From positions 4,145-68,144 of the IMG/VR virus record IMGVR_UViG_3300031555_004120: a stretch of DNA of 64,000 nt; one strand, given 5' to 3'. The number at the start of each line of letters is the position of its first letter. Positions within the stretch are counted from its first letter, which is position 1. Of this stretch, positions 6,844 to 60,873 are shown one piece after another. A model generated the notes under the pieces. That model saw only the letters and a program-made list of their open reading frames with translations. It did not search any database and was not told the DNA's origin. Both the position numbers and the translations under genes were made by a program. This DNA is from a virus. Lineage: Duplodnaviria > Caudoviricetes.

Positions 6844-9084
6844 TTATAGCATATCATAGAATTTAGACAAATTACCTTGCAAGTATTCATGTTCAGGATG
6901 ATAACCTTCATTTTCATCATCAAAATCTGTATCATTTAAGAATAATGAATTTGGTAATGTTGTTAATTGTTGATTTGCAGCATAGCCAAGATTTACTACA
7001 TTAATACCTGTGTCTATTTCTAATGATGCAGCAGCACCTTTATCATTAGCAATTAAAATATTTCGAGCTTCTATTTTTCCAATAAATTGAGAAGCAGCAA
7101 GATCATCACTTGTAATAAATCTTGTATCCTTCTCAATCCATTCTAACTCTGCAGCAATATCTTCTTTAACTTCAAAAGTAGAACCATTAAAATCAATTTT
7201 TTCTCGTGCTTCGAGAGCATCTTCAATTTCTACAGATTCAATATCTTCATCAGTATCAGTTTTAATTGTAGACTTTCTGATTCCGAAGTTCTCTATCAGA
7301 TTATGTCCATCATACCATACATAAAGAGCCATTAAGTATGAGAATACCTGGTCATCGTGAGATCTATCAGAGTGCTCAACCTTACCATTCTTCTTAACTT
7401 GCATTGCCCTCATTTCTTCAAGAATTATAGGAGCTACGAACTTATCCTTATGATACATTGCTCTTTCCATAAGAATTTCTACAAGTCTTGCTCTTACAGA
7501 CTTTGTAGAGTCTAAGCCGTAAACTTTAACTTTACGATTCTGTTTCTGTACTCTTGTACCATTGTAACTTTCTTCGACAACTCTGTCTTTGATTTCCCAA
7601 TAAAGGTTCTTCTTAACAGAAGTCTTAACCAAACGTTGAATAACTGCAGATCCGAAACCTCCATTACGTTCGATATTTATTATAGCATTTGGCATATATT
7701 TGGTTACAAGTTCATATATTACTTGAGCCAAATCATCTGCAGGAATAAAGTTACAATTTAATGTAGCACAAACTCTAGTTGTTCTAGAATCTATTACAGT
7801 AATAGCAGAAGAGTCATTAAATGTAGCACCAGCAACGTCGACTCCAATAATAGGAGGATATGATAAATCAAGATCCTCATATATATTAAACTGATACTGT
7901 CTAAACTTGCCAAAGAAAATAGTTCTAATAGGTTCCTTAATATGAAGCTTAATAATATCCAAATCTTCTTGAGCAAAAGGACAATCAGTTGCAGTTTCTG
8001 CCCATTCAAGCATAACTTCTCGTCTTATCTTAGCCCAGTTAGATTGCATTTCTACTACCATTCGTTTAAAGTAATCCTGACCAGAACCTAACTGTTGATA
8101 TGTATAAGATACCAGGAACATGTTAGACTGATTATTAGAATCTCTAAGTCCAATAAGTTCTTGATATGACATATCATAGTATTCTTCTTTCCAAGGTGTA
8201 GCCTTATTTCTAATCTCATAAGCATAAATACCAGAGTTAGTCAACAAGTCACCAGGTGTTGTTGTAATAAGCATTCCATAAGGAGCATTATTTTGTCTTG
8301 CATTTTCTGAAGCTTTGGAGAATGCAGGAACAGCTGCCATAAATACTTCTTCATTCCAAGGCATGAAAGCAAACTCGTCGTAATACTGAACAGGAATAGT
8401 AGCACCACGACCAAGGTTGTTAGCTGCATCTTTTGTTCTAGCACTTGGATAAGTATTAATCTTATTATTATTGAACGGATGCTGAATCATAACAACTGTA
8501 TTTGGAACTTTTAGTTTATTACCATTAATATCAATATTTGAAGACATTTGTAAATAACTAGGTAATGCATCTCTAATATTCTTTAATGTCTTGAGGTTAC
8601 CCTTAGAACCAGAATGATCTTTATGCATAAACATAATTTCAGAGTTGGATGTACCAAAGTTATAAATCCAAAGATATCTACAAACAGCAGCAATCGTTTT
8701 ACCATGCTGACGAGGCATTTCTACAAACATATTGAAGTTCAATATAAATAAGAAATTCATTGCTAAATTGCCTCGATGTAATTTATATCTAGCACCGCTA
8801 CCTACAGTACCACCTTGAACTGGTATTCTTATAATTTCTCTAAGGTAATACCAATAATTCAGTCTACATTCTTGTAGAATTCTTGCTTTCATATGAGTTG
8901 GAAGATTAGGATCTCGTGGATCTACTCCAGCTAATCCTGAATCTAATAACGCAAGAAAGAAATCGTTATTCTGAATACCTTTATTCTTGAGATAATAATG
9001 CATATCTAAGAATGATTGGTTAGTTGTAGACTTGTGAATCAGTACAGTTCTTTGCTGCTGTGGTAGCTGATTCATAACAGCCAT
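6844..9084 (-). CDS. terL: Terminase large subunit
   Basis: Walker A PRQHGKT, Walker B QYYDEFAF, motif LITTTPG, RNaseH-like nuclease IIGVDVAG and HDDQV; adjacent to the portal gene. Confidence 0.92.
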   Translation of the reverse strand: MAVMNQLPQQQRTVLIHKSTTNQSFLDMHYYLKNKGIQNNDFFLALLDSGLAGVDPRDPNLPTHMKARILQECRLNYWYYLREIIRIPVQGGTVGSGARYKLHRGNLAMNFLFILNFNMFVEMPRQHGKTIAAVCRYLWIYNFGTSNSEIMFMHKDHSGSKGNLKTLKNIRDALPSYLQMSSNIDINGNKLKVPNTVVMIQHPFNNNKINTYPSARTKDAANNLGRGATIPVQYYDEFAFMPWNEEVFMAAVPAFSKASENARQNNAPYGMLITTTPGDLLTNSGIYAYEIRNKATPWKEEYYDMSYQELIGLRDSNNQSNMFLVSYTYQQLGSGQDYFKRMVVEMQSNWAKIRREVMLEWAETATDCPFAQEDLDIIKLHIKEPIRTIFFGKFRQYQFNIYEDLDLSYPPIIGVDVAGATFNDSSAITVIDSRTTRVCATLNCNFIPADDLAQVIYELVTKYMPNAIINIERNGGFGSAVIQRLVKTSVKKNLYWEIKDRVVEESYNGTRVQKQNRKVKVYGLDSTKSVRARLVEILMERAMYHKDKFVAPIILEEMRAMQVKKNGKVEHSDRSHDDQVFSYLMALYVWYDGHNLIENFGIRKSTIKTDTDEDIESVEIEDALEAREKIDFNGSTFEVKEDIAAELEWIEKDTRFITSDDLAASQFIGKIEARNILIANDKGAAASLEIDTGINVVNLGYAANQQLTTLPNSLFLNDTDFDDENEGYHPEHEYLQGNLSKFYDML

Positions 9085-11917: not shown

Positions 11918-12811
11918 TTATACACCCTGAGCAGCTGATACTAACTTCTCAACTTTATCAGGACTAGAACCGTTCATGATACCATACTTGTAATCTGCAG
12001 AATCAAGAACAGTAGGATTAAGCTTATTACCATTAATGTCATTAGACATATTAACAGTGCCACCATACTGAACAACAGAGTTGTTGACATTAACTCCAAC
12101 ACCTGTGATTTCATGCTCAAGCAGATACTTAGCAGCCTTATCTACTTCATATCCATAAATAGGGAAACAGTTAAACTCAATAGTCATTTCCTTGTTAGAA
12201 ATGTTATCACGAGAACCGTTGTACATAGAAAGTTCAGCTCTTGTAAGCTGGCAGTTTGCAAGCAATACTGCACGCTCAAGTCTAAGCATTGTATTATCTG
12301 TTACATAATACATCAAAGTGAATACTTCGTTTTCAAGACCCGGAGGTAAGATATTGTCAGCGATAAGACCATGATAAGTCTTAGCCTGAGTCTTAGGATC
12401 CTTGATACCAGTCAAGTAATACTCAGAGAACTTAGTAATCAATCCACCAGCTTTTTCAAAGTACTGCATAGAAACTGTTGTAGAAGTTTCCATTGTAACC
12501 TTGTTAATCATTCTCTGGCTGTTGATACCATCAGTAATCTCGAAAGTATCAGCCTGAAGATCAGGAAGACCATCCATACCACGGAACTCAAACTCAAGCA
12601 TGTGTCTGAAGTTCTTACACATCTGGTCCATAGAAGCATTCTTCTCCAAGAATGTAGGCATCTGGAGAACACTCAGGAACTGATAACCAGATTCATACTG
12701 GTTAAACTGTCCAATCTGGCTAAAGTCTGTAACTCCTCTGTATGCTGTATACTGAGTCAGATTACGAGGAGTAACAGTATAGTTATTGAAAATTCCATTG
12801 TTTACTGCCAT
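11918..12811 (-). CDS. Tail tube protein
   Basis: Immediately downstream of the sheath gene; ~300 aa, beta-rich, highly expressed codon usage. Confidence 0.7.
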   Translation of the reverse strand: MAVNNGIFNNYTVTPRNLTQYTAYRGVTDFSQIGQFNQYESGYQFLSVLQMPTFLEKNASMDQMCKNFRHMLEFEFRGMDGLPDLQADTFEITDGINSQRMINKVTMETSTTVSMQYFEKAGGLITKFSEYYLTGIKDPKTQAKTYHGLIADNILPPGLENEVFTLMYYVTDNTMLRLERAVLLANCQLTRAELSMYNGSRDNISNKEMTIEFNCFPIYGYEVDKAAKYLLEHEITGVGVNVNNSVVQYGGTVNMSNDINGNKLNPTVLDSADYKYGIMNGSSPDKVEKLVSAAQGV

Positions 12812-19932: not shown

Positions 19933-20150
19933 ATAAAATAAAATTGCTTGTAATATCTATATTAGATGAATTTGAACAACTTCTTGAAGATACTGATACT
20001 ACTATTCCGGATGAATTTAGAGAAGGTGAAGAAGGAGAAGCCAGATTATTTGGAGATGGATATTATAGATTAGAAGATAGTATTTATAATATGATATACA
20101 GGGAATTTATTATTCAACCAATAGAATTTATAGATAAAGGAGAATTATAA
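19929..20150 (+). CDS. Hypothetical acidic protein
   Basis: 73 aa; ATGA overlap with the previous gene. Confidence 0.55.
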   Translation: MNKIKLLVISILDEFEQLLEDTDTTIPDEFREGEEGEARLFGDGYYRLEDSIYNMIYREFIIQPIEFIDKGEL

Positions 20151-20620
20151 TGAATCTCAAAACAAAAATAAGAATAGAATCTAAGGATATAGCAGCTATT
20201 AATTTATTAATGACTCATATTAAAAATGAATTCCTTAGTAGAGCTTTTATTTTAAAGAATGGTATTGTTGAACTGGTGGATTATTCTATTGAAGAAACAA
20301 AAGATGAATTATATTATATTGAACTTAATTGTTCCGGTAGATTTAATAAAGTTCTAATACCTACATTGATAGATAAGCATACACTTGGAATGGAGTCCAC
20401 TAAATTTGATCTAATAACTATCCATATTTATCCCGAAGACGATAGTAAAAATGGTGATATTGGTAATATGGTTTATGAGCAGTTTGTTGGTCATGAAGAT
20501 TATATTGATAGTGCTGTTGTATTAAATACAGATGAAGGTATTCATAGTTTTATTTGTGATGATAGTTCTAAATTTCCTTTATTTATATTAACCAAATTTT
20601 ATACAGCTTTTGACAAATAA
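20150..20620 (+). CDS. Hypothetical protein
   Basis: 156 aa with GGAG RBS; bidirectional terminator follows. Confidence 0.55.
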   Translation: MNLKTKIRIESKDIAAINLLMTHIKNEFLSRAFILKNGIVELVDYSIEETKDELYYIELNCSGRFNKVLIPTLIDKHTLGMESTKFDLITIHIYPEDDSKNGDIGNMVYEQFVGHEDYIDSAVVLNTDEGIHSFICDDSSKFPLFILTKFYTAFDK

Positions 20621-20692
20621 TAAATCAAATAAATAATCCCCTGGGTTTTACAAAACCCAGGGGATAATATTTTATTTTTTCACCGGATAAAA

Positions 20693-22165
20693 TTATACAC
20701 CAATACTGTCAATATTATCGATAATATAATCAGCTGTAGCGATAGCAATCTGTGTAGCATTTTCGCTCATAATTTCTTCTTCAGACATGAAACCGCCAAT
20801 AACTGCTTCGATAAGACCTTCATATTCTTCATATTCGAAGTTTTCTTTAACTTCTTCCTGATTCTGCTGAGCAGCTTTCTTCTTATCAGAAATCTTTTTA
20901 GCAGCAATTGCAGCAGCTGCACCTGTAGCAGCAACACCAGCACCAATAGCAGCAGTCTTACCAGGATTATTCTTGATAGCAGTACCAACATTCTTAGCAG
21001 CAGTACCTACTGCACTGGCAGCATTCTTAATCTTAGATCCAAGAGTTTCCTTAGCCTTATCACCAACAACCTTAGTATCAATCATCTGAGATTCGATCAT
21101 ATAATCAGCTACTTCACAAGCAAACTCGGAAGCATTTTCAGCCATGATTTCTTCTTCTGTCATGTTAGCAACAACGAATTCTACGAGCTCTACATATTCA
21201 GGATACTCATAGTTTTCTTTTACTTCTTCTTCTTTTTCCTTAGCAGCAGCTTTCTTTCTGTCAGCAATCTTCTTAGCAGCAAAAATACCACCTGCAGTTG
21301 CAGCAGCTACACCAGCACCGATACCAGCAGCTTTACCAGGATTAGCCTTGATCCAATCAGCAGCTTTACCAGCAATATTCTTAGCTTTCTCTCCACCTTC
21401 TGAAGGAATAGTAGCAAGACTTGTATTCTGATTAACTACTGCAGGAAGATTCTTCTCTTCAGCAGCTTTCTTAACAATTTCACTAGCCTTAGCAGCAGCT
21501 TTAGAATTCTTCTTTGCAGCTTCCTTAGCAGCAGCTTCAGCAGCTTTAATCTTCTTCAGAGAACGCTGTTCTCTTGCTTTCTTAACATATTCACTCACAT
21601 CTGCTTTCTTATCAAGGCTTCTACCTTTACCAGCAAAATCTCCAGCAAGCTTTCCTTCTTCTTTAGATTTCTTAACAGCATCAAAAGCCTTAGTTAAAGT
21701 TTCCTTAGCAGAAGCCTTAGTATCTTCATCACCACCGGAACGATTTACTAAGTTATGAGCTTTAAGAACAGCTTCTCCAGCTTTCTTCTTTGCTTCATCA
21801 GCCTTAACACCACCAGCCAACTCAGACTGAGTTGCTCTCTTAAGTAATTTTGCTGCCTTTTCAGCTGCCTTCTTTTCTTTAACTTTCTTGAACTCATTCA
21901 AGATATATAAAGCAGCTTCCATAACAAAATCTTCTGCGTTTTCCATAGCAAGCTGATCTTCGGTCATAAGACTTGTAATAGCTTCTACGAGAACACCGAA
22001 GTTAACCTCTTCGTCTAACATAATTTCTTCTTCAATAGCTGCTTCGCATAAAACATTAGCTGCTTCAACAAAGAATTCATTAACAGGCTGTTCGTTAGAT
22101 GATTCAGTCATAGTTTCATAACGTCTTGCTTTAACAAGAGCATCAGCGTATGTTACACCATTCAT
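20693..22165 (-). CDS. Probable internal head protein: Ala/Lys-rich with two Gly/Ala hydrophobic repeats and many hydrophobic-X-Glu motifs
   Basis: Acidic segments rich in MTES/VNEF/FVEA/LCEA/AMEN alternate with basic AK-rich segments; KxAxIGAGVAA...AAKKI(A/S)DxKKAA occurs twice. Confidence 0.5.
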   Translation of the reverse strand: MNGVTYADALVKARRYETMTESSNEQPVNEFFVEAANVLCEAAIEEEIMLDEEVNFGVLVEAITSLMTEDQLAMENAEDFVMEAALYILNEFKKVKEKKAAEKAAKLLKRATQSELAGGVKADEAKKKAGEAVLKAHNLVNRSGGDEDTKASAKETLTKAFDAVKKSKEEGKLAGDFAGKGRSLDKKADVSEYVKKAREQRSLKKIKAAEAAAKEAAKKNSKAAAKASEIVKKAAEEKNLPAVVNQNTSLATIPSEGGEKAKNIAGKAADWIKANPGKAAGIGAGVAAATAGGIFAAKKIADRKKAAAKEKEEEVKENYEYPEYVELVEFVVANMTEEEIMAENASEFACEVADYMIESQMIDTKVVGDKAKETLGSKIKNAASAVGTAAKNVGTAIKNNPGKTAAIGAGVAATGAAAAIAAKKISDKKKAAQQNQEEVKENFEYEEYEGLIEAVIGGFMSEEEIMSENATQIAIATADYIIDNIDSIGV

Positions 22166-22308
22166 TGTTTAATCCTCCATTAAAAAATATTTTCTGATTT
22201 TTAGCATAACTTTTTCTATTTTGAAGAAAAGTGTAGCTTTTAAATATATGTGAAAAGAATTTAGTATTAACTTAGTTTATAATTAATACTATAAGGAGGG
22301 TTCATAAT

Positions 22309-22680
22309 ATGAGTAATATGAATAAAAGAATCAGCAAAGATATAATTATTTACATTGATGGAATTAAATGTAGATGTAATACTATTAATATTACTGTATA
22401 CGAATCTTATAATATCCCTAATGATAAAATTGAACAATTTGTGAATAGATTAAGAACCGAATTATCAGTTGTTGATGGTATTGAATTTAAAAGATCTAAA
22501 GAAAGTTTTATCAGAGAAATATATGCTCATAATGTTTTATATAGAAGAAATATTTATGTAATGAGCTCTAAAGATACTGATATTACTGATAATGAAGAAT
22601 GGTATAGATTATTAGCTTTCGATACTATATATTACATTGGACAATTGACATATAAACTCAAAAATATATTCAAGAAATAA
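22309..22680 (+). CDS. Hypothetical protein
   Basis: 123 aa with AGGAGG RBS. Confidence 0.55.
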   Translation: MSNMNKRISKDIIIYIDGIKCRCNTINITVYESYNIPNDKIEQFVNRLRTELSVVDGIEFKRSKESFIREIYAHNVLYRRNIYVMSSKDTDITDNEEWYRLLAFDTIYYIGQLTYKLKNIFKK

Positions 22681-22691
22681 AAATATTAAGC

Positions 22692-23300
22692 TCAGGGTAG
22701 TTTTCTACCCTGAGCTTTTTCGTTTTGATTATTCACTTTTTCTTCTTCATCAAAATGCATCATTTCTTCTACAATACCGATATTTTTTCTAAGTTCGTTT
22801 AATTCTCTATTATGAAGATTTAATATATTTTGTTGAATTTCTTGAGCTTCTATAATTTTCTTTAACGATTTTTTATAGTTTTCAAACTCAATTCTTCTAA
22901 TATCATTATATATTCTCTTTTCAATTCTTCTTAGAATTCTACTATCTACAGCTGTTGATACTGTAGCTGCAATAAAAGGAGAAAATAAGATATTCCAAAG
23001 TATATCATTATCATAATATATAAATGACGTAAACCAATAGCACAAAGATATTGCAAGAAAGTAATTAAATGCAATTTGTATTATCATGGCACCTTTATAT
23101 TTTTTGTATACTATATCAGCTTTGTTAAATTTGTTGATAGAACTAATAAAGCTTTTATAGTGAAATGCAAAATATATAAGTATTAGCAGATTATTTATTA
23201 AAAATATTTCAATATTATATACTCTACCATATAGAGAATTTATAAATTCTTCTATAAAAAACATAAAGGGGAGATTAATAAACAATTCTGTATCGTTCAT
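22692..23300 (-). CDS. Membrane protein with about 3 TM helices plus coiled coil; holin-like paralog of 55569
   Basis: Start refined to ATG 23300; WNILFSPFIAATVSTAVD resembles WNIVVAPLVGFLASIWFD in the 55569 protein. Confidence 0.5.
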   Translation of the reverse strand: MNDTELFINLPFMFFIEEFINSLYGRVYNIEIFLINNLLILIYFAFHYKSFISSINKFNKADIVYKKYKGAMIIQIAFNYFLAISLCYWFTSFIYYDNDILWNILFSPFIAATVSTAVDSRILRRIEKRIYNDIRRIEFENYKKSLKKIIEAQEIQQNILNLHNRELNELRKNIGIVEEMMHFDEEEKVNNQNEKAQGRKLP

Positions 23301-23384
23301 GGTGTCATTCCCCCTCTCGATATTATACATAAGTTGATCAATTAATACAAAGAAGGGAAGATAACTACCATTACACTGGTACAC

Positions 23385-24113
23385 TTATCCATTAATTTGA
23401 ACATCATCACAAACTGTAGATATCCATCCACGATGATTAATAGTAAGATTACATATTGCTAATCTTTCATCTTCCATCTTTTCAAATGCTCTAAGATATT
23501 GATTAAATCCACTATTTTCAGGATGTTTATATAAGTCACACTGTTCAGAATGTCCAATTATGATAACTTTACAATTATCATGGATTCTAGTTAATGTTTT
23601 CTTGAGATTGGCTCCATAGAAGTTCTGTGCCTCGTCAATAATAACTACTTTATTTTCAAAATTACAACCTCTCAAATATGTATCAACTGTAAATTGAATA
23701 TAAGCAGTACCATTCTTTAAAGCTTCAATATTACTATCAGATTGTAATACCTGTGTAGGAACTAATCCTATAGTATATAATGCTTCAAGTAATGGTTCCA
23801 TATAAGGAGCACTTTTTTCTTCCTGACTACCAGGTAAATAACCCTGTCTTTGTTCATTAGTAGGAGATGCTATATAAACTATTCCATCGTACAAACCATA
23901 TTGTACCATAAGATTTGCTACACCAACAGAAATAGTTGTTTTACCAGTTCCAGCTTTTGCATTACACATAATGATTCTAGTTTTAGGATCATATATAGCA
24001 TCTCGGAACTTCTTTTGCTCTTCATCTAATAATAATCCGTAAAACATGATATCATCCAAGGTATCTGGAGCTTCATATGTTTTAATATTACTCTGGTATT
24101 GTTTCTTCTTCAT
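23385..24113 (-). CDS. phoH: PhoH-family ATPase
   Basis: AKAGTGKT, YLRGCNF, IIDEAQN, GHSEQCDL and HRG motifs. Confidence 0.9.
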   Translation of the reverse strand: MKKKQYQSNIKTYEAPDTLDDIMFYGLLLDEEQKKFRDAIYDPKTRIIMCNAKAGTGKTTISVGVANLMVQYGLYDGIVYIASPTNEQRQGYLPGSQEEKSAPYMEPLLEALYTIGLVPTQVLQSDSNIEALKNGTAYIQFTVDTYLRGCNFENKVVIIDEAQNFYGANLKKTLTRIHDNCKVIIIGHSEQCDLYKHPENSGFNQYLRAFEKMEDERLAICNLTINHRGWISTVCDDVQING

Positions 24114-24215
24114 AGATCAATCCTTCTTTCTATAAATTTTATTATGATGTGCAACTTATATCAACAATCTTTATTGTAAAAAATTACAAATTATTTTTAC
24201 CCATAACAATAAAGT

Positions 24216-24935
24216 ACTGAAAAAGTAGAAGATAGTATTGTTATATTTAAACTGTGTGTTATTAATATCCTGGTGCATAACTACAATACCATGTAATCCA
24301 GGGTGCCTCAATCTCATTCTTTTATAACTGATAGGGAACTAAAAGGGTGATTAGTATTAGCTATAATCAATGAAACTATACTAAGAATGGTCTAACAAGC
24401 TAAAGTGTTGAGGTAGCATAGACTAATATGATGCTAATGCATTCGATCTTTCCTATATAATAATAGACGCTTCCTGTGGAAGAATAATCCTTGGACCTAT
24501 AGGACGGTAGGCAACCGACTATAATAATAAGGAAATTGCCAAATATATAGTGCTCGTGACTGTTTATCTGAAAAGGTAAACTATAAGAAAGATCGTGAAG
24601 TTCGAGTAGCCCAATCGAGCATGAAAACATAATATATATGTTTTCGGTAGAGGACCGAAAGGATTGAACATATCTGAATGGTGGGTGAAAGTTGGGAGTA
24701 TCATTCTCCTTAGAGCAATGGGCAGATTTTTATCTGCTGCGGTGAAAAGTTTATAATCGACGGGTTATGGGCTCAGATTCATCGTCTCTATAGCATAACA
24801 AGTAGTAGTATTAGCGAGTAGGCTGAAGAGTCATTGATAATGCATGGTTTAAATGTAATAATATTATCCAATACTGATTCTAAAATATTTTTATAAATGA
24901 AATAAAGATTCCCATAGGAAGAGATTCCTATGGGA
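24216..24935 (+). ncRNA. Large structured non-coding RNA candidate (~720 nt; ROOL/GOLLD size class)
   Basis: No credible ORF; locally higher GC; AACA-N6-TA promoter at 24205-24216; 5'/3' end pairing (24234-24252 with 24847-24875); many hairpins; terminator at 24910-24935. Confidence 0.7.
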
Positions 24936-25048
24936 GTTTTGTTTATTTTTTCATATTAACTATCTGAACTTCTTATTAATATACCGATTATCGATTTTAT
25001 AATACGGTATTCTAAAAATATAATATAGAAAAATAGGAGGTAATTATT

Positions 25049-25903
25049 ATGTCTATCTATGGTCATGAATTAACTACAGATTTCGGAAGAGATAACAAAA
25101 ATACTCTTTATATCGAAAATCATGTAAGTTTCAACCGTGAATTAGATGAAGCTGCAATGCAGCCATATATTGATGAGTTGACAAAAGAAGTATTCAATGA
25201 AAAAATAGATATGGATGAAGGTTTTGGAGGTAAACTTAGACCTGTATTTATAGTTTTAACTTATTCTGATTCCAGATTCGATCATATCGCTGAAAAATTT
25301 GTAAAGAATCAGACGTACTGGCACGCTTCTATAGGATTTGGACCTTCATTGAGTAGAACTTATTCATTCAATTTTGGTGAAGCTGATAGCAATAAATTCA
25401 AAGGTGGATTATCTTTCGAATCTATGAAATTCTACCAGGAAGAACATCCTACAGGAACTTGTGAAGTATCATGTATTTTCTTGACACCTTATAAGTACAA
25501 GAAGCTTAAAGCTACTCTTGAATATTATTTGAGAAATAAACAGAAAACGAGATATTCTTTTGTAAATCTTCTTTATTCTTTATTTGGAAAAGGTACTAAG
25601 AATGGTTTAAAAATGAATCTTGTATGTTCTACTTTCGTAGATACTATTCTCAGATCTGTAAATGTAAATATTTCTGGAGATAAAGCAACTAATCTTACCA
25701 AGCCTGATGATTTGAAAGTTGGAAAACATGAAAAACAGTTTAAGGTATTTGAAGGAAGATTGCTTGATTATGATGCAGAAAAAGTTGCAAGAAAAGTTGA
25801 GAAATTATCCAATGATGTAAATAGTAATTTCTTTAAGAAACATGTTTCTGAAGCAGTACAGAATTGGATACCTGTAAAAGAATCAACAATTGACGAAGGT
25901 TAA
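25049..25903 (+). CDS. Permuted papain-like NlpC/P60 (YiiX/YaeF-type) enzyme, probably virion-associated
   Basis: His motif WHASIGF precedes Cys motif LVCSTFV, followed by TKPDDL; hydrophobic-X-E motifs at both ends. Confidence 0.55.
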   Translation: MSIYGHELTTDFGRDNKNTLYIENHVSFNRELDEAAMQPYIDELTKEVFNEKIDMDEGFGGKLRPVFIVLTYSDSRFDHIAEKFVKNQTYWHASIGFGPSLSRTYSFNFGEADSNKFKGGLSFESMKFYQEEHPTGTCEVSCIFLTPYKYKKLKATLEYYLRNKQKTRYSFVNLLYSLFGKGTKNGLKMNLVCSTFVDTILRSVNVNISGDKATNLTKPDDLKVGKHEKQFKVFEGRLLDYDAEKVARKVEKLSNDVNSNFFKKHVSEAVQNWIPVKESTIDEG

Positions 25904-25997
25904 TATTGTCCCTAGGGTCGAAAAGATCCTAGGGATATTTATTTTTTATCAATCTAGATACTCTCTTATAAATAAAGAAATTAAGGAGATAATCTCA

Positions 25998-26360
25998 ATG
26001 GAAATTACAGGTTGTATTAGTGTTCCTGAAGAAGAAACAGAAAGATTTGATAATCAGTGTGATAATGGAGTATCATTATTGATGGTTGATAATGATGAAC
26101 CTTTAAATATGGATGAAGATGGTAGTATGTATATAGAAGACAATCCTAAAGTATTAGGAGTTTTTGTATCGAGATATAATATTCCACTTTTACAGAAAGT
26201 ATTAGAATTAATAGATGAATATGAACCTCAAATTGAATTTTCTGTAGACGGTATTCGAGCTACATTTACTCCTGATTTTGATGACGATATGGAAGAAGTT
26301 ATAGATTGTACTTCTACTGTTTTTGATAATCCCAAATTGATAGAATATAAAGAGGAATAA
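25998..26360 (+). CDS. Hypothetical acidic protein
   Basis: Start refined to ATG 25998 (AGGAG RBS). Confidence 0.55.
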   Translation: MEITGCISVPEEETERFDNQCDNGVSLLMVDNDEPLNMDEDGSMYIEDNPKVLGVFVSRYNIPLLQKVLELIDEYEPQIEFSVDGIRATFTPDFDDDMEEVIDCTSTVFDNPKLIEYKEE

Positions 26361-26364
26361 TTTA

Positions 26365-26676
26365 ATGAATAATAGATTGAGACAAATTAAGAAACCATTT
26401 GGTCCTTATAGATGTCATTCATGTCAATATAGATATAGTGATTGTGATCATGGTTTTGGTAACAAACCTGATTATTGTAAAGATTATTATCCTGGTGGAT
26501 GTTTATCTTGTAAATATCGTTATGGTATATATGGTAATGATTTTACAGCAAAAGAAGATACTCAATGGCTACAAAGAGGATGTGATGTATTCTTTCCATC
26601 TTCTTTAAGATGTACCAAGAGAAAACGTTTAGGAAGAAAACGTAAGAAAAGATTAAAGAAAAGAGGATTATTATAG
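26365..26676 (+). CDS. Cys-rich basic small protein
   Basis: CxxC motifs and a K/R-rich tail. Confidence 0.5.
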   Translation: MNNRLRQIKKPFGPYRCHSCQYRYSDCDHGFGNKPDYCKDYYPGGCLSCKYRYGIYGNDFTAKEDTQWLQRGCDVFFPSSLRCTKRKRLGRKRKKRLKKRGLL

Positions 26677-26779
26677 AATTCTCCATCATCTATAGGAAAT
26701 TTATTAATATAATTGATTTTATTTAATCATATTAATTGTAATTGCATCAAATTTGGTACATATTGAAAGGAAGTTAAAA

Positions 26780-27346
26780 ATGAATAAAACAGAATTCTTT
26801 TATAAATATACAACAGCATCATCTGAAATGGATTATGATGAACGAATTAAAATTGAAAGAGAATCTATTGATACAAATCCTATCAATATAGGATATGGTA
26901 ATAGAAATCTTATTATTGTAATGGAAGAGTGTAGTGAACTTATACAAGAGCTAATAAGTATGCAGTATGGAATTGGAGATAGATTATCTTTAATTGAAGA
27001 AACAGCCGACGTAGAACAAGGATTGGATTATGTTAAATTAATTTGCGATATTTCTGATAATGAGATTAATTATGATGTGTCGTTTGATACAGAAATAGTG
27101 TATAATAAAGCAACGAATCCAATTGTAGCATTATCGTTATTACAACAACAAATTTCTAAATATTTACGAAATAAATTATCTCATAAATACGATCTTATAG
27201 AAGCTGTCAAAAATGTATATATTTCTCTTGAATATATTAAATATGCATATTCTATAGATAAAAAAGAAATCAATAAAGCTATGAATGTAAAGTTACAAAG
27301 ATTAGTTGAAGTTAAACAAAATAACCCATCAGCAATATATCAATAA
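26780..27346 (+). CDS. MazG-like nucleotide pyrophosphohydrolase, tandem domains
   Basis: VMEECSELIQEL...LIEETADV; the second helical repeat is degenerate. Confidence 0.65.
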   Translation: MNKTEFFYKYTTASSEMDYDERIKIERESIDTNPINIGYGNRNLIIVMEECSELIQELISMQYGIGDRLSLIEETADVEQGLDYVKLICDISDNEINYDVSFDTEIVYNKATNPIVALSLLQQQISKYLRNKLSHKYDLIEAVKNVYISLEYIKYAYSIDKKEINKAMNVKLQRLVEVKQNNPSAIYQ

Positions 27347-27371
27347 TAAAATAATAGAAAGGAAAAATATT

Positions 27372-27914
27372 ATGGCAGATGTAAATTTATCGGAAGTTGT
27401 AAAAGTAACAAATAATACTGACTTAAGTTTTGAGATCGGTGGAGTTAATGTTCCTATAGGACAAATTTTGGGAGAAAAGTTAGTTGCTTCTCTCATGGAA
27501 AGAATTACAGATGAAGAGTTTGAAGTTATTTATAAATATATGCATGATCAGACTTGGAAAAAAGATTATTGTGGGGAGAAAGTTATTCTGAATTATACAA
27601 AGAAGGATAATTATTATAATACTCAAAGTACACCACCAACTATTGCTACATATGCTGAAAATCTTTTATCAGAAAAAATGAAAGAAAGAATCAAAGCTAA
27701 AGTAGAAGAAATAACTTCATCTGAAGAATTCTTATCTAAGGCAGACCAGATTGCTCAAGAGATTGTAGATTATGCTACAGAAGGTTATAAGAAAGATATG
27801 AAAGCAAGAGTATATGAACGTCTTGTTGCTAATACTGTAGATGCATCTCCTTGTTATGGTGGTGTGGATTTGAGATCTATTATCTTTCAATGTATTAATG
27901 ATAGATTACGATAA
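27372..27914 (+). CDS. Hypothetical protein
   Basis: Start refined to ATG 27372 (AGGA RBS). Confidence 0.55.
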   Translation: MADVNLSEVVKVTNNTDLSFEIGGVNVPIGQILGEKLVASLMERITDEEFEVIYKYMHDQTWKKDYCGEKVILNYTKKDNYYNTQSTPPTIATYAENLLSEKMKERIKAKVEEITSSEEFLSKADQIAQEIVDYATEGYKKDMKARVYERLVANTVDASPCYGGVDLRSIIFQCINDRLR

Positions 27915-28052
27915 TATCAATATAATAATCCCTAGGGTATTATCTACCCTAGGGATATTAGTTTCATTTCAATTTCATAAAAATTCCCTCTAGAGATTTC
28001 TCTCTAGAGGGAACATTATTATTCTTTATAACCCGCTGCTATAATCAGCAAA

Positions 28053-29795
28053 TTATGCACGTCCCTGAGGATTCAAGATCTGGATACGGCTCTGTACAGG
28101 CTGATATTCCTTCATCAAGAATCTCTCAAAGCTGTGAATTGCAGGCAGAGAAGGATTAGCAGCATTACGGATCTCGTTAGAGATGTACATCTGGTAATCA
28201 TATAATCTGTAGCAGATTCTTTCAGTGTTACGAGGATTCAAGATAATCATCAACTCGTTGGTATTTCTGTACTTGTCAGATCCTACGAAGTTGTATACTC
28301 TGTGATCCTTGGTGTTAACGATGGTCTGAGTGTAATCAAGAGTTACAGGACCAATGTTAGCAGGAGCCTGGTAAGCATACTCTGTAGGAGTGATCTTTCT
28401 TACGATACGAGGATCACCAACGATAGAAACAGTCATGTTAGGATCGTTGAGAACCTGAAGCATCTTAGTTACAAGGTCATCCAAGTAATCCATGAAAGTA
28501 GCATGACGGAAAGTTACCCAATCAAGAGCATAGCCCTCATTAGGAGCAAAGTCAAAGCTGCCCTGGAAGCTTGTTCTTTCATCCATTCTTTCGAATGAAG
28601 CGTCGAAGAACTTCTTCATCTTCATATCTTTGTACTCAGACAATACAGTCTTAGTCATAGACATGATCTTAGTTACCTGGTTTGCATCATACATAGCAGA
28701 TACATCCTTAACTTCTTCAGGAGATACGGTTGTATTGATAGGAGTTGCTTCCGGAATCTCAACGTAGTCAGAATCAACTTTCCACTTAACAGATACCATA
28801 TCAAGCTGAGCGTTAGAAGTATTCAACTTAGCAGCAAGCTTAACCTTAGAGATCTTGCCCTGAAGAGTATTGATACCGATCTTACCATTGTTCATAGAAC
28901 CGAAGATAGTATCAGTCAATACTGCAACGCCACCGTTAGCGTCAGTCTTATACTTGATAGTGATAGGCTGATTTAATACACGCTCGTTACGGTTAGGTCC
29001 ACCGTAAGAAGGAGTGAAAGGAATGCTGCAATGGAACCAAAGGTTCTTCATACCAGCATCAGCTGCAGTAGCAAGTTCAGTCTTATTGCTGTACCAACCA
29101 TTAGCATCCGGCATATGGTCACCTTCAGCGATATATACATTTTCTACATAGATACCACAGATGTGAGTTACAGAACTCAATTCATCAGTAGTAGTTCCAC
29201 CGAGCTTACCGATAATATCAGTAGTACCAGTTTCAGGAAGAGATAACTCAAATTCCTTAGTAGGTGCTGTAGCATCGATAGCATCAGCGATTCTGTTCTG
29301 CTCTAAGAACATATCGATTTCTTCACCTTCCGGAGTAACGAGGATACGTCTTTCCATAGAAATGGTGAAAGAAGGCTGCACTGCAGTTACTCTCTGAACT
29401 ACGTTACCCTGAGAGAATACGTTGTTCATAAGGATTAATTTATGGATAGGCAATGCCATACCAACCATAGGAGAATACTCTGTCTGGTAAGCGTTTTCCT
29501 GCATAGCATGGATATCGTTCTCAAACATAGCTTCTACATCTTCATGCATCTCTTCGAGCTGCTCAGAAGTTAAAGTTTCATTGTTATCGTCGATGAAGTT
29601 TTCACAGAAGAATTCCTTCAAAGCGTCTTTTGCTCCAGCGGAGCGAATTGTACGGGTAGGTTCTGCAAAGAAATCATAGTTCTCTACTGTAAGAATAGAG
29701 TTTGCAGCTTCAGTAAAAGCTTTACCGTAAGCATACAAAGGATCGTTTCTGTAAGCAGTTCCGCCGATCGTTTTCTGTCTAGTTCCTGCGATCAT
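28053..29795 (-). CDS. Major capsid protein (HK97 fold, T4 gp23-like)
   Basis: 580 aa; very strong codon bias; acidic N-terminal propeptide with x-E motifs; TAVQPSFT resembles gp23 VQPM; AACA-N6-TA promoter at 29894-29905. Confidence 0.8.
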   Translation of the reverse strand: MIAGTRQKTIGGTAYRNDPLYAYGKAFTEAANSILTVENYDFFAEPTRTIRSAGAKDALKEFFCENFIDDNNETLTSEQLEEMHEDVEAMFENDIHAMQENAYQTEYSPMVGMALPIHKLILMNNVFSQGNVVQRVTAVQPSFTISMERRILVTPEGEEIDMFLEQNRIADAIDATAPTKEFELSLPETGTTDIIGKLGGTTTDELSSVTHICGIYVENVYIAEGDHMPDANGWYSNKTELATAADAGMKNLWFHCSIPFTPSYGGPNRNERVLNQPITIKYKTDANGGVAVLTDTIFGSMNNGKIGINTLQGKISKVKLAAKLNTSNAQLDMVSVKWKVDSDYVEIPEATPINTTVSPEEVKDVSAMYDANQVTKIMSMTKTVLSEYKDMKMKKFFDASFERMDERTSFQGSFDFAPNEGYALDWVTFRHATFMDYLDDLVTKMLQVLNDPNMTVSIVGDPRIVRKITPTEYAYQAPANIGPVTLDYTQTIVNTKDHRVYNFVGSDKYRNTNELMIILNPRNTERICYRLYDYQMYISNEIRNAANPSLPAIHSFERFLMKEYQPVQSRIQILNPQGRA

Positions 29796-29948
29796 TTGCT
29801 TGTCCTCCTTATAGGGTTTTAATATTGATATTTTTCATATAATCAGTCAAAAATAGATTACTACGCAACTACCAGTTTGCGAGTACTATTTTTTATCATT
29901 ATGTTCGGTGTTTTGATTTGATATTTCGAAGAATTTTTACTCTTTTTC

Positions 29949-30596
29949 TTATTTATTACCTTTATCTTCGTTTTCTTTTGCAAATTTCTTTGCTATATCA
30001 TCAAGAATTTCGGTTATAGACTTGATAATAGTCAAAAATCTTACAAAAGTAACATCGTTTTCTACATAAGATTTTGTAGGAAATACCATTGTAAGGTAAT
30101 CAGAAATATAAACCTTTACATCGTATAATGATGTAGATATTCTGGAGATAGTTTCAAGGTTATCTTCATTTATATCAAGTTTATTGATTCTTTCCAATAT
30201 ATCATCACAAGATGAATACAGATTAGAATATAAATTCTTCAATTCTTTAATCTTGATCTGTTGTTCTTCTGCTGTCAATGAAGCAAAGATATCAGTATTA
30301 GCTTCAATCTCTTCATCACCTTCTAACTCTTCACCTTCTTCACCAGGTTGCTGAGCAGTATTAGGATCTTCTGCAGCTGGATCTGCTTCTGCATTCTGCT
30401 GAGTTTCAGGATTTTCTTCAGCTTGCTGAGCAGCATCTTCTTCTGGAGAACTTCCATCATCTAATGATGTATCTATAGAAAAGTCATCATCAATACTTCC
30501 TTCCATATCTGCTGGAGAAGCAGAAGAAGTATTATCTTCCTCTGCCTCATGTACAGACTTTAAAGAAAGAATATCATATATAGATTGCATTCCCAT
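29949..30596 (-). CDS. Acidic head/scaffold-like protein
   Basis: VHEAEED followed by a long D/E/A/P-rich linker; upstream of the capsid gene. Confidence 0.45.
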   Translation of the reverse strand: MGMQSIYDILSLKSVHEAEEDNTSSASPADMEGSIDDDFSIDTSLDDGSSPEEDAAQQAEENPETQQNAEADPAAEDPNTAQQPGEEGEELEGDEEIEANTDIFASLTAEEQQIKIKELKNLYSNLYSSCDDILERINKLDINEDNLETISRISTSLYDVKVYISDYLTMVFPTKSYVENDVTFVRFLTIIKSITEILDDIAKKFAKENEDKGNK

Positions 30597-30617
30597 AATT
30601 GATACTTTCCTTTCTTT

Positions 30618-33512
30618 TTATTTATCATCATTCTTACCTACACCAATATCTGCAGGAAGAACTCTTTTTCCAGTTCTCAGATTATATCTGATTCTCTGAT
30701 ACTGTCTTTGTAATTCTTTCTTGTATTGAATAAGAGCTCTATATTTCTTAATCTGATTATTACTATCAGCCATAGACATTTCTTTTTCTACAACTTCAAG
30801 TTCTGTTTCAATCTCATCAAGAATTAATAGTCTTTCTCTATCATTGAGCTTCTTAGAAACTGCTAATCCACCCATTGCTACAATAATAGGAATTGTAACT
30901 CCATTGGTTAATACTCCCAATATAGTCAATCCTAATCCAGCCTTAATACATCTTGAGAAAGAAGGAATCAGAGATCCTTTTATAATAGCTTCTCTTCTAT
31001 CAGAAACAAGAGCCCGTTTCATACTAGTAACTACAGATCTTACAGAATTGTCTAAATTTCTTGACATTTCTTTTTCTTTGTTACTCATATCTTTAAACTT
31101 CTGTCTTAATCCCATAAGACCAAGCTTGATATTATTTAAATTAATAATAGGTCTCTTTCTTTCTTTTTGTTGAGAATCGTTCTGCTGATTAGATTCTTTC
31201 TCTTTAGAAACATCAGATTTGATATCTGTAGATTCATCATTATCTTCTGTTTCATCTACACTATCTTCATCCTCAGGATCTTCTTCGTCTTCATCATCTT
31301 CACCATTATAATAGCCTTTCTGACGAAGTCTATCTTCAAGAGCTTTACCTCCAACTGCTGTAGGTGGTTTGGATGATGCTTCTTCTATAATATCCAAAAG
31401 ATAACCGTATGCTTCAAGCTGAATATTAGATGGAACTTCTTCCTCTCTAGTCCAATTTTCTACTGCTTCGGATACTTTCTTTTCCTGCTTAGAAAGCATT
31501 ACATAAGACTCGTTGATTACACCTTCTTCAATAGCTTTATTGAACTGATAATCAGAGAATTTATCACCGAATACTTTTACAATATCACTATCAAGATTAA
31601 GATAACTCATAGCTTCAAGAGCAAGTGTAAAATGCTCATAGGTAAAATTATCAAACTTACTGAAGTCAAGAATCTGCTCTTCAATCGGAGCCATCATAAA
31701 ACCATCATAAGTATTAAACTGACCTGAAGTTTCAACAAAAGTTTCCAGATACAAATCAATAGAAGAATCAAAATTATTTCTTACTTCGTTCATTTCTGAT
31801 TCAGTAAGTTCAATTTCTGTAGTTTCTTTAATATTGATTTCTGCAATACCAGGATTGATAGTATAGTAAGCTCTCATAGTATCCATATTCTGAGAGATTA
31901 GTAAATCATTATATTCATTACATACAGTATCTAAGAACTGAGATAATTCATTTAATTCTGATTCAGTATAAGGATACTGTCGAACACATATACTCGCTTT
32001 ACAATCTTCTCCAATATATGAATATATATTTTCTTTATATTCAGCCATTTCTCCAAAGAGAATATTTTTAGTTCTAGAAACAAAGTTTTTGATCTTATTT
32101 TTAGCTGAATTGATAAACTTCTTTTCTTTAACTTTAAGAAATTTATTAAGGTTAAAAGCAGCATTTACCAAGTTATGGAATTTAAAGATCTTATATTCAT
32201 TAAGAGGTAAGCCTTCTCCAGTACTTGTATTAACAAACTTGATACTATCAAGGTTATTTCTACTGTATAGAATATCCTTAGTATAAGACAAAGAATCAAT
32301 AGCAGGATTTAAAGCATTCTTAATAAAGCTTAAAGCTGCTGAAGAATATGCAGGATTTGAATTACCTACTAATTCCAATTCAGTCTTAATATTATCCATT
32401 TTATTAATGATTAATACAAGATCTTCTTTTGAATAATCTTCAACATTTTCTGCTCCATTATTGGCTACTAATTTAGTACAACCGGAAATATAATTGGGAA
32501 TAATACCAAATGCTTTAAATACACCTTCATCTGATTCAAATGTTTTATTCTTTACGAATCCCCAAAGTAAATAAATCAAATTTTCGATATTAGCAAGAAT
32601 ATCCTGTTTATTGGTATCATTCATAACTCTGTTAATCATAACTGGCAAACTATTGTCTGATTTATTACAATTAACCAGATATCTATGAATAGCATCATTG
32701 ATAGATTTATAAGGAGCAGTAGGATTTTCATCACTTGCTAACATGACTTGAACTTTAGCAATATCTTCTTCTTCGAGAATGTAATTCTCATTTACAGCTC
32801 TCCTGAAGTTATTCAATTCATGTTCAGAAATATAAGGATTCTGAATAAGATAGAATTCTACAATACCTTTCAGTAGATTTTCTTTATTATAATCTACATG
32901 ATTTTTCTCCAAGAGATAATAACACTCTTCGAATAACAAATTCATTTTCTGATATTCTTTGATACGATAAGTATCAATCATATCGGCACAAGAATCAATA
33001 AAATACTTCAAACCAGCAGATCTGATTCTGTTACACTCTCTTTCAATATTAAATCTCTTTGAAATAGATTCATGATTCTTCAGAATTCTATCAGAAGCTG
33101 CAATAGCAGTACAATTTTCAAAAATAGTATTCTTCTGATCTTCTGTTAAATTTTCTCTTCTTTCCAAAGAGTTTACAACAGCTTCGATATTCTCCGTATA
33201 AGGGAGAATTCTGTCAACGTATTCTGCTAATATCCTATCAGAGATAACTGGGTCAACTGTGTTGAATGTTTCTAACAAATTGAAAATCTGATAATAATTG
33301 GAACTTGCATTCTGAGTGTTACATAAACTTTCGATAAAAGATCTTAACAACTGCTGAGTATCAGCATTTCTACCATTCTTTTTGATTTCAATGCTTCGGT
33401 TAAGATTATTGAAAATTTTATTAGAATCTACTTTTGTAGATTCTGTCACAGCCGAATTCAAGCATCGAGAACGCTTAAGAATAGTAGTATAATTTACTAT
33501 CTTTCTAGACAT
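30618..33512 (-). CDS. Large hypothetical virion protein
   Basis: 964 aa; AVTES/VINES/IIEEA motifs, acidic linker, hydrophobic C-terminal helix; late-type promoter at 33544-33555. Confidence 0.5.
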   Translation of the reverse strand: MSRKIVNYTTILKRSRCLNSAVTESTKVDSNKIFNNLNRSIEIKKNGRNADTQQLLRSFIESLCNTQNASSNYYQIFNLLETFNTVDPVISDRILAEYVDRILPYTENIEAVVNSLERRENLTEDQKNTIFENCTAIAASDRILKNHESISKRFNIERECNRIRSAGLKYFIDSCADMIDTYRIKEYQKMNLLFEECYYLLEKNHVDYNKENLLKGIVEFYLIQNPYISEHELNNFRRAVNENYILEEEDIAKVQVMLASDENPTAPYKSINDAIHRYLVNCNKSDNSLPVMINRVMNDTNKQDILANIENLIYLLWGFVKNKTFESDEGVFKAFGIIPNYISGCTKLVANNGAENVEDYSKEDLVLIINKMDNIKTELELVGNSNPAYSSAALSFIKNALNPAIDSLSYTKDILYSRNNLDSIKFVNTSTGEGLPLNEYKIFKFHNLVNAAFNLNKFLKVKEKKFINSAKNKIKNFVSRTKNILFGEMAEYKENIYSYIGEDCKASICVRQYPYTESELNELSQFLDTVCNEYNDLLISQNMDTMRAYYTINPGIAEINIKETTEIELTESEMNEVRNNFDSSIDLYLETFVETSGQFNTYDGFMMAPIEEQILDFSKFDNFTYEHFTLALEAMSYLNLDSDIVKVFGDKFSDYQFNKAIEEGVINESYVMLSKQEKKVSEAVENWTREEEVPSNIQLEAYGYLLDIIEEASSKPPTAVGGKALEDRLRQKGYYNGEDDEDEEDPEDEDSVDETEDNDESTDIKSDVSKEKESNQQNDSQQKERKRPIINLNNIKLGLMGLRQKFKDMSNKEKEMSRNLDNSVRSVVTSMKRALVSDRREAIIKGSLIPSFSRCIKAGLGLTILGVLTNGVTIPIIVAMGGLAVSKKLNDRERLLILDEIETELEVVEKEMSMADSNNQIKKYRALIQYKKELQRQYQRIRYNLRTGKRVLPADIGVGKNDDK

Positions 33513-34835: not shown

Positions 34836-34895
34836 ACAAATAGTACCACTAGACGTAAAAGTCTAGTGGTATTTTATTTTATTAAACATTGGTGT

Positions 34896-35097
34896 AAAGG
34901 AAATTATGCTCGGTAGAAAGAATGTCCGTTTCTGAAAAGGTGTGTATAAAGTTTGTAGGAATCGACGTAGGTTCATTTCTATGAATTTCTCCTGAATAGG
35001 TGTTGAAAATTGCAAAATTGCTGAACTCTTGCCATGGTTTAGTAAAAACTCCGAGTATATTTTTTGTAGCTGGTGAAGACTGAGTGTAATTTCCTTT
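34896..35097 (+). ncRNA. Structured ~200-nt non-coding RNA candidate
   Basis: 19-bp terminal helix (34896-34914 with 35079-35097, G-U allowed) begins exactly at the +1 predicted from AACA-N6-TA (34885-34896); internal hairpins; terminator at about 35118-35144. Confidence 0.6.
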
Positions 35098-48790: not shown

Positions 48791-48928
48791 ATTTCGTTAT
48801 ATGTTCAATAGGGAGAACGGTTGGCTGACACCCAGCAGAATTAAGAGAATTATGAGAGCTTAATCAAGACTTACCGGACAATGTCAAGTTTAGGTAGTAT
48901 AAGTGTGGTTCGATTCCACTAACGAAAT
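48791..48928 (+). ncRNA. tRNA-like RNA with GAC anticodon, 8-9/4 acceptor/T geometry and a ~68-nt variable region
   Basis: Acceptor ATTTCGTTA/TAACGAAAT; D arm GTTC-AATAGGGA-GAAC; anticodon arm GTTGG-CTGACAC-CCAGC; T arm GTGG-TTCGATT-CCAC; no encoded CCA. Confidence 0.65.
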
Positions 48929-48977: not shown

Positions 48978-50084
48978 ATGAATGCATTATTGATTGGTGT
49001 TGGTGCAGCTGGAAATAAAGCAGTTGTAACAGCAATCGAAAACGGTACTATGAAAGTCGAGGATACAGCAATTGTAAACTCAACAAGTAGAGATTTCCCT
49101 AAAGAATATCAGGGAACAAAGATTATCTTATCTGCAACAGATACTGGTTGTGGTAAAGAGAGATCTGTAAGCAAGGCTTATACGAAGAAAGCTATCGGAG
49201 AAGGAAAGTTCAATTTCAATGAAAAGATGGCTCAGTATGCTACTGTTATTATTGTAACTTCTGTAGAAGGTGGAACAGGTTCAGGTGCTACTCCTACATT
49301 AGCTAAGTTCTTTAATAAAGTTTATACTAAGAACGTTCATATTATTGCTTTCACAGGCTTTGAAGATGATGTTAGAGGTCTTGCTAATACAGTAGATTTC
49401 TTTAAAGAAATTGATCCTGCTATTATTGTTCAGACTATCTCCAATGCATCTTTCTTACCTGCAGCTGGACAGAATAAGATGAAAGCAGAAGAATTGGCTA
49501 ACAGAGAAATGGCTGAAAGAGTAAGAGTTCTTATTGGTAAAGACTTCATTGATGGACGTCAGAATATTGATGATACTGATATCTTGAAGTTATCTAATAC
49601 TTCTGGTTATATGACCGTTGAAAAGAAGTGTTTTAGTAAATCTCTTGAAACTAGAGATGATTTTGAGAAGATTATCAAGAATATGATCTATAATACAGCT
49701 TCTATTAAGACGAGTGATCCTGCAGCTGTAAGACTTGGTGTTATTATGAATATCAGTCCTGCATCTGAAGATGCTATTGATGGTTCATTCAAGTCTCTTA
49801 AAGCAGCTTATGGTAATCCTTTTGAATTCTTTAGTCAGATTCAGTGGGATGGTAAAACAGAATATATTGCTTATATTGCATCCGGTATGAAGATGCCAAT
49901 TGAAGAGGTTCAGGCTGTATATGAAAGATATAAAGAACAGACAGCTAAGATTAATAAATCTGGTGATAGCTTCTTCTCTGCTATGGAAAGTATGGGAACA
50001 TTAGAGGAAGATTCTAAGTTCAATATGATTAAAGAAGTAGAGAAAGGTATGTCGATCGCAGATTTTCTTAGCGAAGATGACTAA
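48978..50084 (+). CDS. Tubulin/FtsZ-family GTPase (PhuZ/TubZ-like)
   Basis: IGVGAAGNKAV, GCGK, the signature EGGTGSGA and NIDDTD (T7 loop-like). Confidence 0.85.
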   Translation: MNALLIGVGAAGNKAVVTAIENGTMKVEDTAIVNSTSRDFPKEYQGTKIILSATDTGCGKERSVSKAYTKKAIGEGKFNFNEKMAQYATVIIVTSVEGGTGSGATPTLAKFFNKVYTKNVHIIAFTGFEDDVRGLANTVDFFKEIDPAIIVQTISNASFLPAAGQNKMKAEELANREMAERVRVLIGKDFIDGRQNIDDTDILKLSNTSGYMTVEKKCFSKSLETRDDFEKIIKNMIYNTASIKTSDPAAVRLGVIMNISPASEDAIDGSFKSLKAAYGNPFEFFSQIQWDGKTEYIAYIASGMKMPIEEVQAVYERYKEQTAKINKSGDSFFSAMESMGTLEEDSKFNMIKEVEKGMSIADFLSEDD

Positions 50085-60864: not shown

Positions 60865-60873
60865 GAGTATAAT

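Follow-up and report, generated by a model that had tools for sequence, protein, structure and literature searches.

A bona fide but divergent ROOL RNA gene lies on the plus strand at positions 24245-24851 of a 64,000-nucleotide stretch of DNA (the window) from an uncultured jumbo phage, a reading to which we assign a probability of about 0.85. The copy adds a new, divergent member to a known family, in a setting that is atypical for it, and no new category of RNA is called for. Only a handful of natural RNAs are known to assemble into cages free of protein, and ROOL is among them. Work on the family includes that of Weinberg et al. from 2017 and cryo-EM structures of the env-120, E. faecalis and Firmicutes CAG:227 ROOLs. 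The studied copy bears on hypotheses tying ROOL to tRNA islands, and its divergent sequence is useful for testing which contacts cage assembly requires.

The assignment rests on an Infernal search of the full window with the Rfam 15 models, which returned a single hit, ROOL (RF03087), at 221.3 bits against a gathering score of 99.1 (E 8.5e-49). The match covers model positions 1-574 of 574, so the copy is not truncated, and a second search route gave the identical assignment for 24245-24851. Canonical pairing is retained at 142 of the 159 consensus pairs (~89%) of the conserved multi-stem structure (P1-P19), with the other 17 flagged as non-canonical, and the conserved blocks of the family are all found (AAUAGACG, GUAGCCCA, UCUGAAUG-N4-GUGAAAGUUG and GCUCAGA). 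An initial annotation of this DNA had proposed a large ornate RNA resembling ROOL or GOLLD, which can now be named as ROOL, with a score far above the gathering threshold. It had also suggested a comparison with Rfam by cmscan, and this found ROOL and, at E <= 10 in 24000-25100, no GOLLD, OLE, RNase P or introns. A permissive Rfam scan (E <= 10) added only noise on the terminator hairpin. The features of the region are collected in Table 1.

Table 1. Coordinates, strand and basis of the features of the ROOL locus, its neighbours and the RNA-library contigs that cover it.
Feature	Position	Strand	Basis or detail
PhoH-like ATPase	23385-24113	-	divergent upstream neighbour of ROOL
Candidate AR9-type late promoter AACA-N6-TA	24205-24216	+	consensus match; predicted +1 = 24216
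Closing helix, 5' strand (Rfam P1 plus ~15-20 bp extension past the family model)	24219-24266	+	MFE and centroid folds, complementarity by eye
Closing helix, 3' strand	24833-24880	+	MFE fold
Closing helix segment AGTATTG : CAATACT	24234-24240 : 24869-24875
Closing helix segment TTATATTTAAAC : GTTTAAATGTAA	24241-24252 : 24847-24858		one G-U
Closing helix segment TGTGTGTTATTAAT : ATTGATAATGCATG	24253-24266 : 24833-24846		five G-U
ROOL RNA core, Rfam RF03087	24245-24851	+	covariance model 1-574
Hairpin ATCCTGG : CCAGGGT	24267-24273 : 24298-24304
L3a hairpin, stem UACA/UGUA, loop AUACCA 24286-24291; B1 in env-120	24282-24295	+	Rfam alignment
Conserved block AAUAGACG	24462-24469	+	sequence and Rfam alignment
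AAUAGACG block and P6 hairpin (CUUCC-UGU-GGAAG)	24462-24482	+	Rfam alignment, family comparison
Hairpin CGGT-AGGCA-ACCG	24505-24517
L8 hairpin (loop GGCAA 24510-24514) and J6/8 UUGCC (24536-24540), bridge B4	24505-24540	+	five Watson-Crick pairs possible
GNRA hairpin, 8-bp stem, GAAA loop 24570-24573; A-minor contact = bridge B2	24562-24581	+	Rfam alignment
Conserved block GUAGCCCA	24606-24613	+	sequence and Rfam alignment
Variable linker, two local hairpins (24624-24644, 24643-24659)	24616-24669	+	aligns to unconserved loop of Rfam model
Hairpin TTCGGT-AGAGG-ACCGAA	24643-24659
Conserved block UCUGAAUG-N4-GUGAAAGUUG	24673-24694	+	sequence and Rfam alignment
UCUGAAUG-N4-GUGAAAGUUG core, then hairpin GGAG-UAUCAUU-CUCC (loop with B5 in env-120)	24673-24709	+	Rfam alignment
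Hairpin GCAGAT-TTTT-ATCTGC	24722-24737
P18/L18 hairpin (AUAAUC-GACG-GGUUAU), symmetric kissing loop B6	24753-24768	+	family comparison
Conserved block GCUCAGA	24770-24776	+	sequence and Rfam alignment
Intrinsic terminator, 16-bp stem, 4-nt loop, T-run	24905-24950	+	terminator scan (stem and T-run 24905-24940)
Operon of unknown genes including MazG-like pyrophosphohydrolase	25049-27914	+	downstream of ROOL
Major head gene	28053-29795	-
Run X18 RNA contig	24471-24843
Run X19 RNA contigs	24277-24500, 24471-24823
Run X20 RNA contigs	24382-24489, 24460-24844

The annotation had left room for a new class of RNA, a suggestion that falls because GOLLD, OLE, RNase P and introns are absent at E <= 10 and ROOL is matched over its full length. 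We regard it as extremely improbable that the region is a new ornate-RNA class, a GOLLD relative with a superficial likeness to ROOL, or a decayed protein gene, and nothing favours these readings beyond the earlier reader's failure to assign the family by eye. The end-to-end ROOL match (E 8.5e-49) rules out the first two. The open reading frames overlapping the region encode only 30-76 aa and have no Pfam match even at E <= 1, which rules out the third and agrees with the annotation's view that no credible ORF is present. GOLLD (RF02032), another large ornate RNA of phages, assembles into a 14-mer cage made only of RNA and usually lies beside tRNAs, but its sequence and fold are unrelated to those of ROOL and it has no match to the studied copy at E <= 10.

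The RNA would very probably adopt the flat fold of the ROOL monomer, with a P1 helix of unusual length closing it. The minimum free energy of 24216-24935 is -213.5 kcal/mol, compared with -160.1 +/- 7.0 kcal/mol in dinucleotide shuffles (z = -7.6; 0 of 20 shuffles as stable), and the independent MFE fold recovers the closing helix (about 24219-24266 : 24833-24880) together with many hairpins. The region is as highly structured as had been claimed. All three segments of the long-range closing helix listed in the initial annotation do pair, at or near the places where it had put them, and its four named hairpins were all located within 24267-24737. The helix reaches past the family model by ~15-20 bp, which sets this copy apart from other ROOLs. 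When the central domains of 16 ROOLs were aligned with MAFFT and folded with RNAalifold, P6 was the one helix recovered, as alignment on sequence alone was too poor for the rest; P6 carries compensatory changes in three of its four pairs among the 16 family members, and the studied copy is canonical at all four. In env-120 the published linker comprises residues 414-464, and it is disordered inside solved ROOL cages (PMC12286853).

By cryo-EM, the env-120 ROOL assembles without protein into a homo-octamer with D4 symmetry; bridges B1-B6 hold the chains of this hollow cage, which measures about 28 nm across, and this stoichiometry is maintained down to nanomolar RNA (PMC12286853). Two further ROOLs form the same cage, with 3' extensions displayed outward and internal loops that can be deleted; such 3' extensions and linker deletions leave the cage undisturbed (PMC12515178). 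The B4 kissing interaction, between the L8 loop and the J6/8 segment, is conserved in evolution (PMC12286853).

The bridge elements of the studied copy were compared with those of IMG/VR ROOLs via conserved anchors. The two B4 segments covary across 30+ IMG/VR ROOLs (UAGC/GCUA, UGGA/UCCA, UUGAC/GUCAA, CUUGGC/GCCAAG), and the GGCAA/UUGCC of this copy is a compensated variant of the same family-wide pair. The 'CGACGG' variant of L18 is common to L009, L023, L034, L042, L055, L061 and L066, most members having GGGUCGCUCC. The 8-bp stem with a GAAA loop at B2 is also seen in L034, L042 and L061, other members having stems of 5-6 bp, and the 7-nt form of the B5 loop, which is one nucleotide shorter, is common to L030 and L024. 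The L3a loop, which in bridge B1 pairs with a post-linker segment, belongs to a class, AAUACCA, also found in L009, L011 and L037, the pairing of the B1 partner being ambiguous by eye. Judged by these comparisons, every assessable bridge contact appears to fall inside natural family variation, and octamer formation by this copy is for that reason thought likely. Eight copies would self-assemble without protein into a D4 hollow nanocage, as for three other ROOLs, and within such an octamer the ~55-nt linker (24616-24669) would likewise be expected to face the inside and the extended P1/3' tail the outside. Cage assembly is not guaranteed, given the low score of the copy (see below) and its 17 non-canonical pairs.

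A conserved-core pattern drew 61 ROOL loci from IMG/VR, of which 17 were checked with Rfam. Canonical full-length phage copies score 280-362 bits, and the studied copy, at 221 bits, is the lowest among those examined and lies ~100 bits below typical phage copies. In blastn comparisons with the 61 loci only the conserved cores align, with no primary-sequence similarity outside them, so no close relative is available for a covariation set. No match to the 720 nt was found by blastn in phage and plasmid collections, and a search of IMG/VR for an exact 29-nt ROOL motif had no result. Shared with the family are a full-length model match, the conserved blocks, a variable linker and the covarying L8:J6/8 pair, in a phage-borne, Bacillota-type RNA from a rumen/gut setting that is found as RNA.

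The family also occurs on other very large phage genomes in IMG/VR, for example L009 (181 kb), L053 (205 kb), L056 (244 kb) and L033 (402 kb), and complete genomes of 181-402 kb are among its canonical carriers. L009 and L066 share the L18 variant with the studied copy, and L009 its L3a loop class as well. Canonical phage ROOLs lie in dense tRNA islands, some with tmRNA or GOLLD, and this holds for the L009, L053, L056 and L033 genomes, with many-tRNA islands and sometimes tmRNA or GOLLD; in this they differ from the studied copy, which lies among virion and nucleotide-metabolism genes. The head protein of the carrier phage has no detectable homologue in five large ROOL-bearing genomes, and the ROOL carriers are therefore unrelated lineages. 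Among the other loci, L011 (a 122-kb IMG/VR phage contig) has a ROOL at 7558-8229 (296 bits) and a GOLLD at 12269-12780 (153 bits) in one tRNA island, and the contig also has a match to 'drum' RNA. A phage tmRNA lies ~0.7 kb from the ROOL in L009 (3098-3399) and L038 (7662-7963). The 402-kb L033 genome has a partial OLE match beside tRNAs at 507-590 (53.5 bits against a cut-off of 50, model positions 439-592 only), which could be due to chance or to a shared sub-motif.

The locus is present in RNA-library contigs from gut metatranscriptomes. Over 20000-31000, the comparison took in contigs of one DNA run and three metatranscriptome runs, of which X18 and X19 belong to one study and X20 to a second. 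RNA-library contigs of all three runs, and so of two studies, match the locus with 0-1 mismatch and lie jointly within 24277-24844, which supports the discrete RNA proposed initially, the contigs giving neither its strand nor its true ends. Contig depths on ROOL were 280 in X18, 73 and 86 in X19 and 11 in X20, and on the head gene of the same phage 51 in X18 and 30 in X19, with no head-gene contig in X20; these are depths of assembled contigs and no measure of expression. Depth in the DNA run is even across the stretch, at about 23. In both studies RNA contigs end at 24843/24844, with no loose end listed there, and the DNA runs on; this is a weak hint that the abundant species may end near the 3' end of the ROOL core and not at the terminator. 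RNA contigs cover little or nothing of the flanks (22202-24036 and 25872-27706), and none is listed over 24845-24993, which includes the terminator; in assembled contigs such gaps prove nothing. Other ROOL members in the same samples match the conserved cores only, leaving loose ends at 24460-24491 and 24671-24703.

The genomic setting departs from that of canonical phage ROOLs. ARAGORN detected no tRNA in the 68-kb record. The only match to the tRNA model on the record, at 48793-48927 (135 nt, 36.9 bits against a cut-off of 29), escaped both ARAGORN and the Rfam scan of the window; a tRNA-like gene carrying a long insertion is the presumed explanation, and with this match 24 kb away no tRNA-like gene lies closer to the ROOL. 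With just five tRNAs on the complete 271-kb relative, the lineage is poor in tRNAs. Neither ROOL nor GOLLD was found in five related phage genomes (one complete), the carrier record serving as positive control for the ROOL search. Gene order is shared with these relatives on the far side of the head gene and is not kept on the ROOL side. When ROOL and its neighbours were considered as a gene module, no neighbour was found to travel with ROOL; there was only a remote (26%) PhoH-like hit, at two related loci. Absence from the relatives and lack of synteny on the ROOL side mark the ROOL as a sporadic acquisition in a variable region of this phage lineage and not as a core element of it.

The same observations could describe a decaying, non-functional relic, gained by horizontal transfer, that no longer assembles or acts, and they would then be read together with the lowest score among the full-length ROOLs examined. 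We consider this unlikely. The copy is full length with 89% of its pairs canonical, a compensated change preserves the B4 pair, and the other bridge elements take forms that recur in the family. It also has a strong terminator of its own, it was recovered as RNA in three metatranscriptome runs, and the locus is present in faecal and bovine-gut metagenomes of 16 studies. A bona fide ROOL gene remains the preferred reading.

This ROOL is a free-standing unit that has a terminator to itself and is oriented away from the PhoH-like gene. The strong terminator described in the initial annotation was found again on the plus strand, as a 16-bp stem and T-run at 24905-24940, and terminator-like sites number three in 1.5 kb compared with 0.4 expected. 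Because the PhoH-like gene upstream points the other way, a promoter for the RNA must lie within the 131-nt gap. The annotation had also pointed to an AACA-N6-TA promoter. The late promoters of Bacillus phage AR9 have the consensus AACA-(6N)-TA/G, the last base being the transcription start site (PMC5312081). Of that claim the motif itself stands: AACA occupies 24205-24208, with T at 24215 and A at 24216, and the predicted +1 (24216) lies 3 nt ahead of the first pair of the extended closing helix. Statistically this low-information motif is weak, with no enrichment over shuffles and a rank of 564 of 127,954 for the held-out ROOL site on a local extended matrix built from nine structural-gene sites.

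The likeness to AR9 late units, which are transcribed by the non-virion RNA polymerase, lies in this minimal motif with its predicted start at the last base, in its presence before the late structural genes of the window, and in relatives with matches to multisubunit RNA polymerase genes. At the sheath, head, protease and endolysin genes of the window, and at other genes of late type, AACA-N6-TA stands 32-99 nt upstream, with sense and antisense occurrences at 11:3. Unlike in AR9, enrichment is not demonstrable, with 11 occurrences in 130-nt upstream regions against 9.6 +/- 3.0 in shuffles; a hit as good as the ROOL site would be expected by chance within 131 nt about 4 times in 10. We therefore treat the late-promoter reading of the motif as tentative, at a little under an even chance: transcription would start in the 131-nt gap, with 24216 as the best +1, from a candidate late promoter used by the phage non-virion RNA polymerase.

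The motif may instead be coincidental, and the ROOL transcribed from another promoter, either by a host sigma-factor polymerase or by the virion polymerase from an early-type site. The statistical weakness of AACA-N6-TA makes this a serious possibility, though one that we would not favour on present evidence. In prophages of Lactobacillales and Enterococcus it is the host polymerase that transcribes ROOL (PMC12286853), and the AR9 early consensus, AAATATATATTAT-(6N)-G, has a loose counterpart in the A/T-rich stretch TTTTATTATGATG at about 24138-24150. Against it, a consensus scan found no sigma-70-like site upstream of the RNA on the plus strand, the exact AR9 early-promoter core TATATTAT is absent from the plus strand of the upstream gap, and AACA-N6-TA stands exactly at the foot of the closing helix, as it does at the other non-coding RNA candidate in the window (rank 12).

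That second site, AACA-N6-TA at 34885 (+1 at 34896), was held out of the matrix and yet ranks 12 of 127,954. It lies 305 nt upstream of the next gene, where a separate ~200-nt structured RNA candidate had been noted; the interval 34885-35097 has no Rfam match at the gathering threshold. The TATATTAT core occurs 37 times in the whole window compared with 19.8 +/- 4.6 in shuffles, none of which reached 37; this excess fits a second, early promoter class.

It has been suggested by the authors of the cryo-EM work that the cage encloses or sequesters tRNAs, ribosome-related factors or other macromolecules. On this suggestion, the cage of the studied phage could be made in quantity during infection and enclose or sequester translation-related macromolecules, which is our best guess, if a doubtful one. 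The distance of the copy from any tRNA gene argues that genomic tRNA linkage is not required for ROOL and that, whatever ROOL does, it can do without a flanking tRNA island. A more radical proposal would be that ROOL has here been uncoupled from tRNA islands and placed under the phage late polymerase amid morphogenesis genes, the cage acting late on virion assembly or riding in the virion and not serving translation. The setting and the candidate AR9-type promoter both distinguish this copy from other ROOLs; the proposal itself we consider highly unlikely. A tRNA-independent role, if true, would redirect the search for the function of the family.

The carrier is an AR9/phiKZ-like uncultured jumbo phage of the cattle gut. 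The window represents bases 4145-68144 of a 68,144-bp IMG/VR record for which CheckV gives a completeness of 26%, and hence a genome of roughly 260 kb. Elsewhere in the window are genes for the large terminase, tail sheath, prohead protease, endolysin, DNA polymerase, ThyX and a PhuZ/TubZ-like tubulin, and a FolD-like gene. The only cultured relatives of the head protein are in 259-274-kb Staphylococcus jumbo phages (Madawaska, MarsHill, S6 and others), at about 25% identity. Uncultured relatives number five, on IMG/VR contigs that measure 160-271 kb and match at about 50% identity; one contig has terminal repeats and is complete. All five lack ROOL, a further difference between the carrier and its kin. 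Two RNA polymerase beta-like matches occur in each of four relatives, with a beta'-like match in two of those four, and the genes would represent the phiKZ/AR9 style of phage-encoded virion and non-virion polymerases. No RNA polymerase gene was found on the 68-kb fragment, which is 26% of the genome.

The tubulin/FtsZ-family protein (48978-50084) has a Pfam Tubulin GTPase domain just above the cut-off and matches PHROG 'tubulin PhuZ' at E 1.3e-5. The FolD-like tetrahydrofolate dehydrogenase/cyclohydrolase (60004-61851, E 4.5e-108) is followed by a second, weaker FolD-like ORF. Its nearest cellular homologues are from Lachnospiraceae (56-57% identity), from which a Lachnospiraceae-type host may be ventured as a weak guess. 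The window of this jumbo phage also includes a transposase gene at 53415-54293 (phrog_10081, E 2e-62). In a contig of DNA run X6, 30 bases at 25876-25907, where the first gene downstream of ROOL meets the second, are replaced by 1,465 other letters; this is an insertion at strain level.
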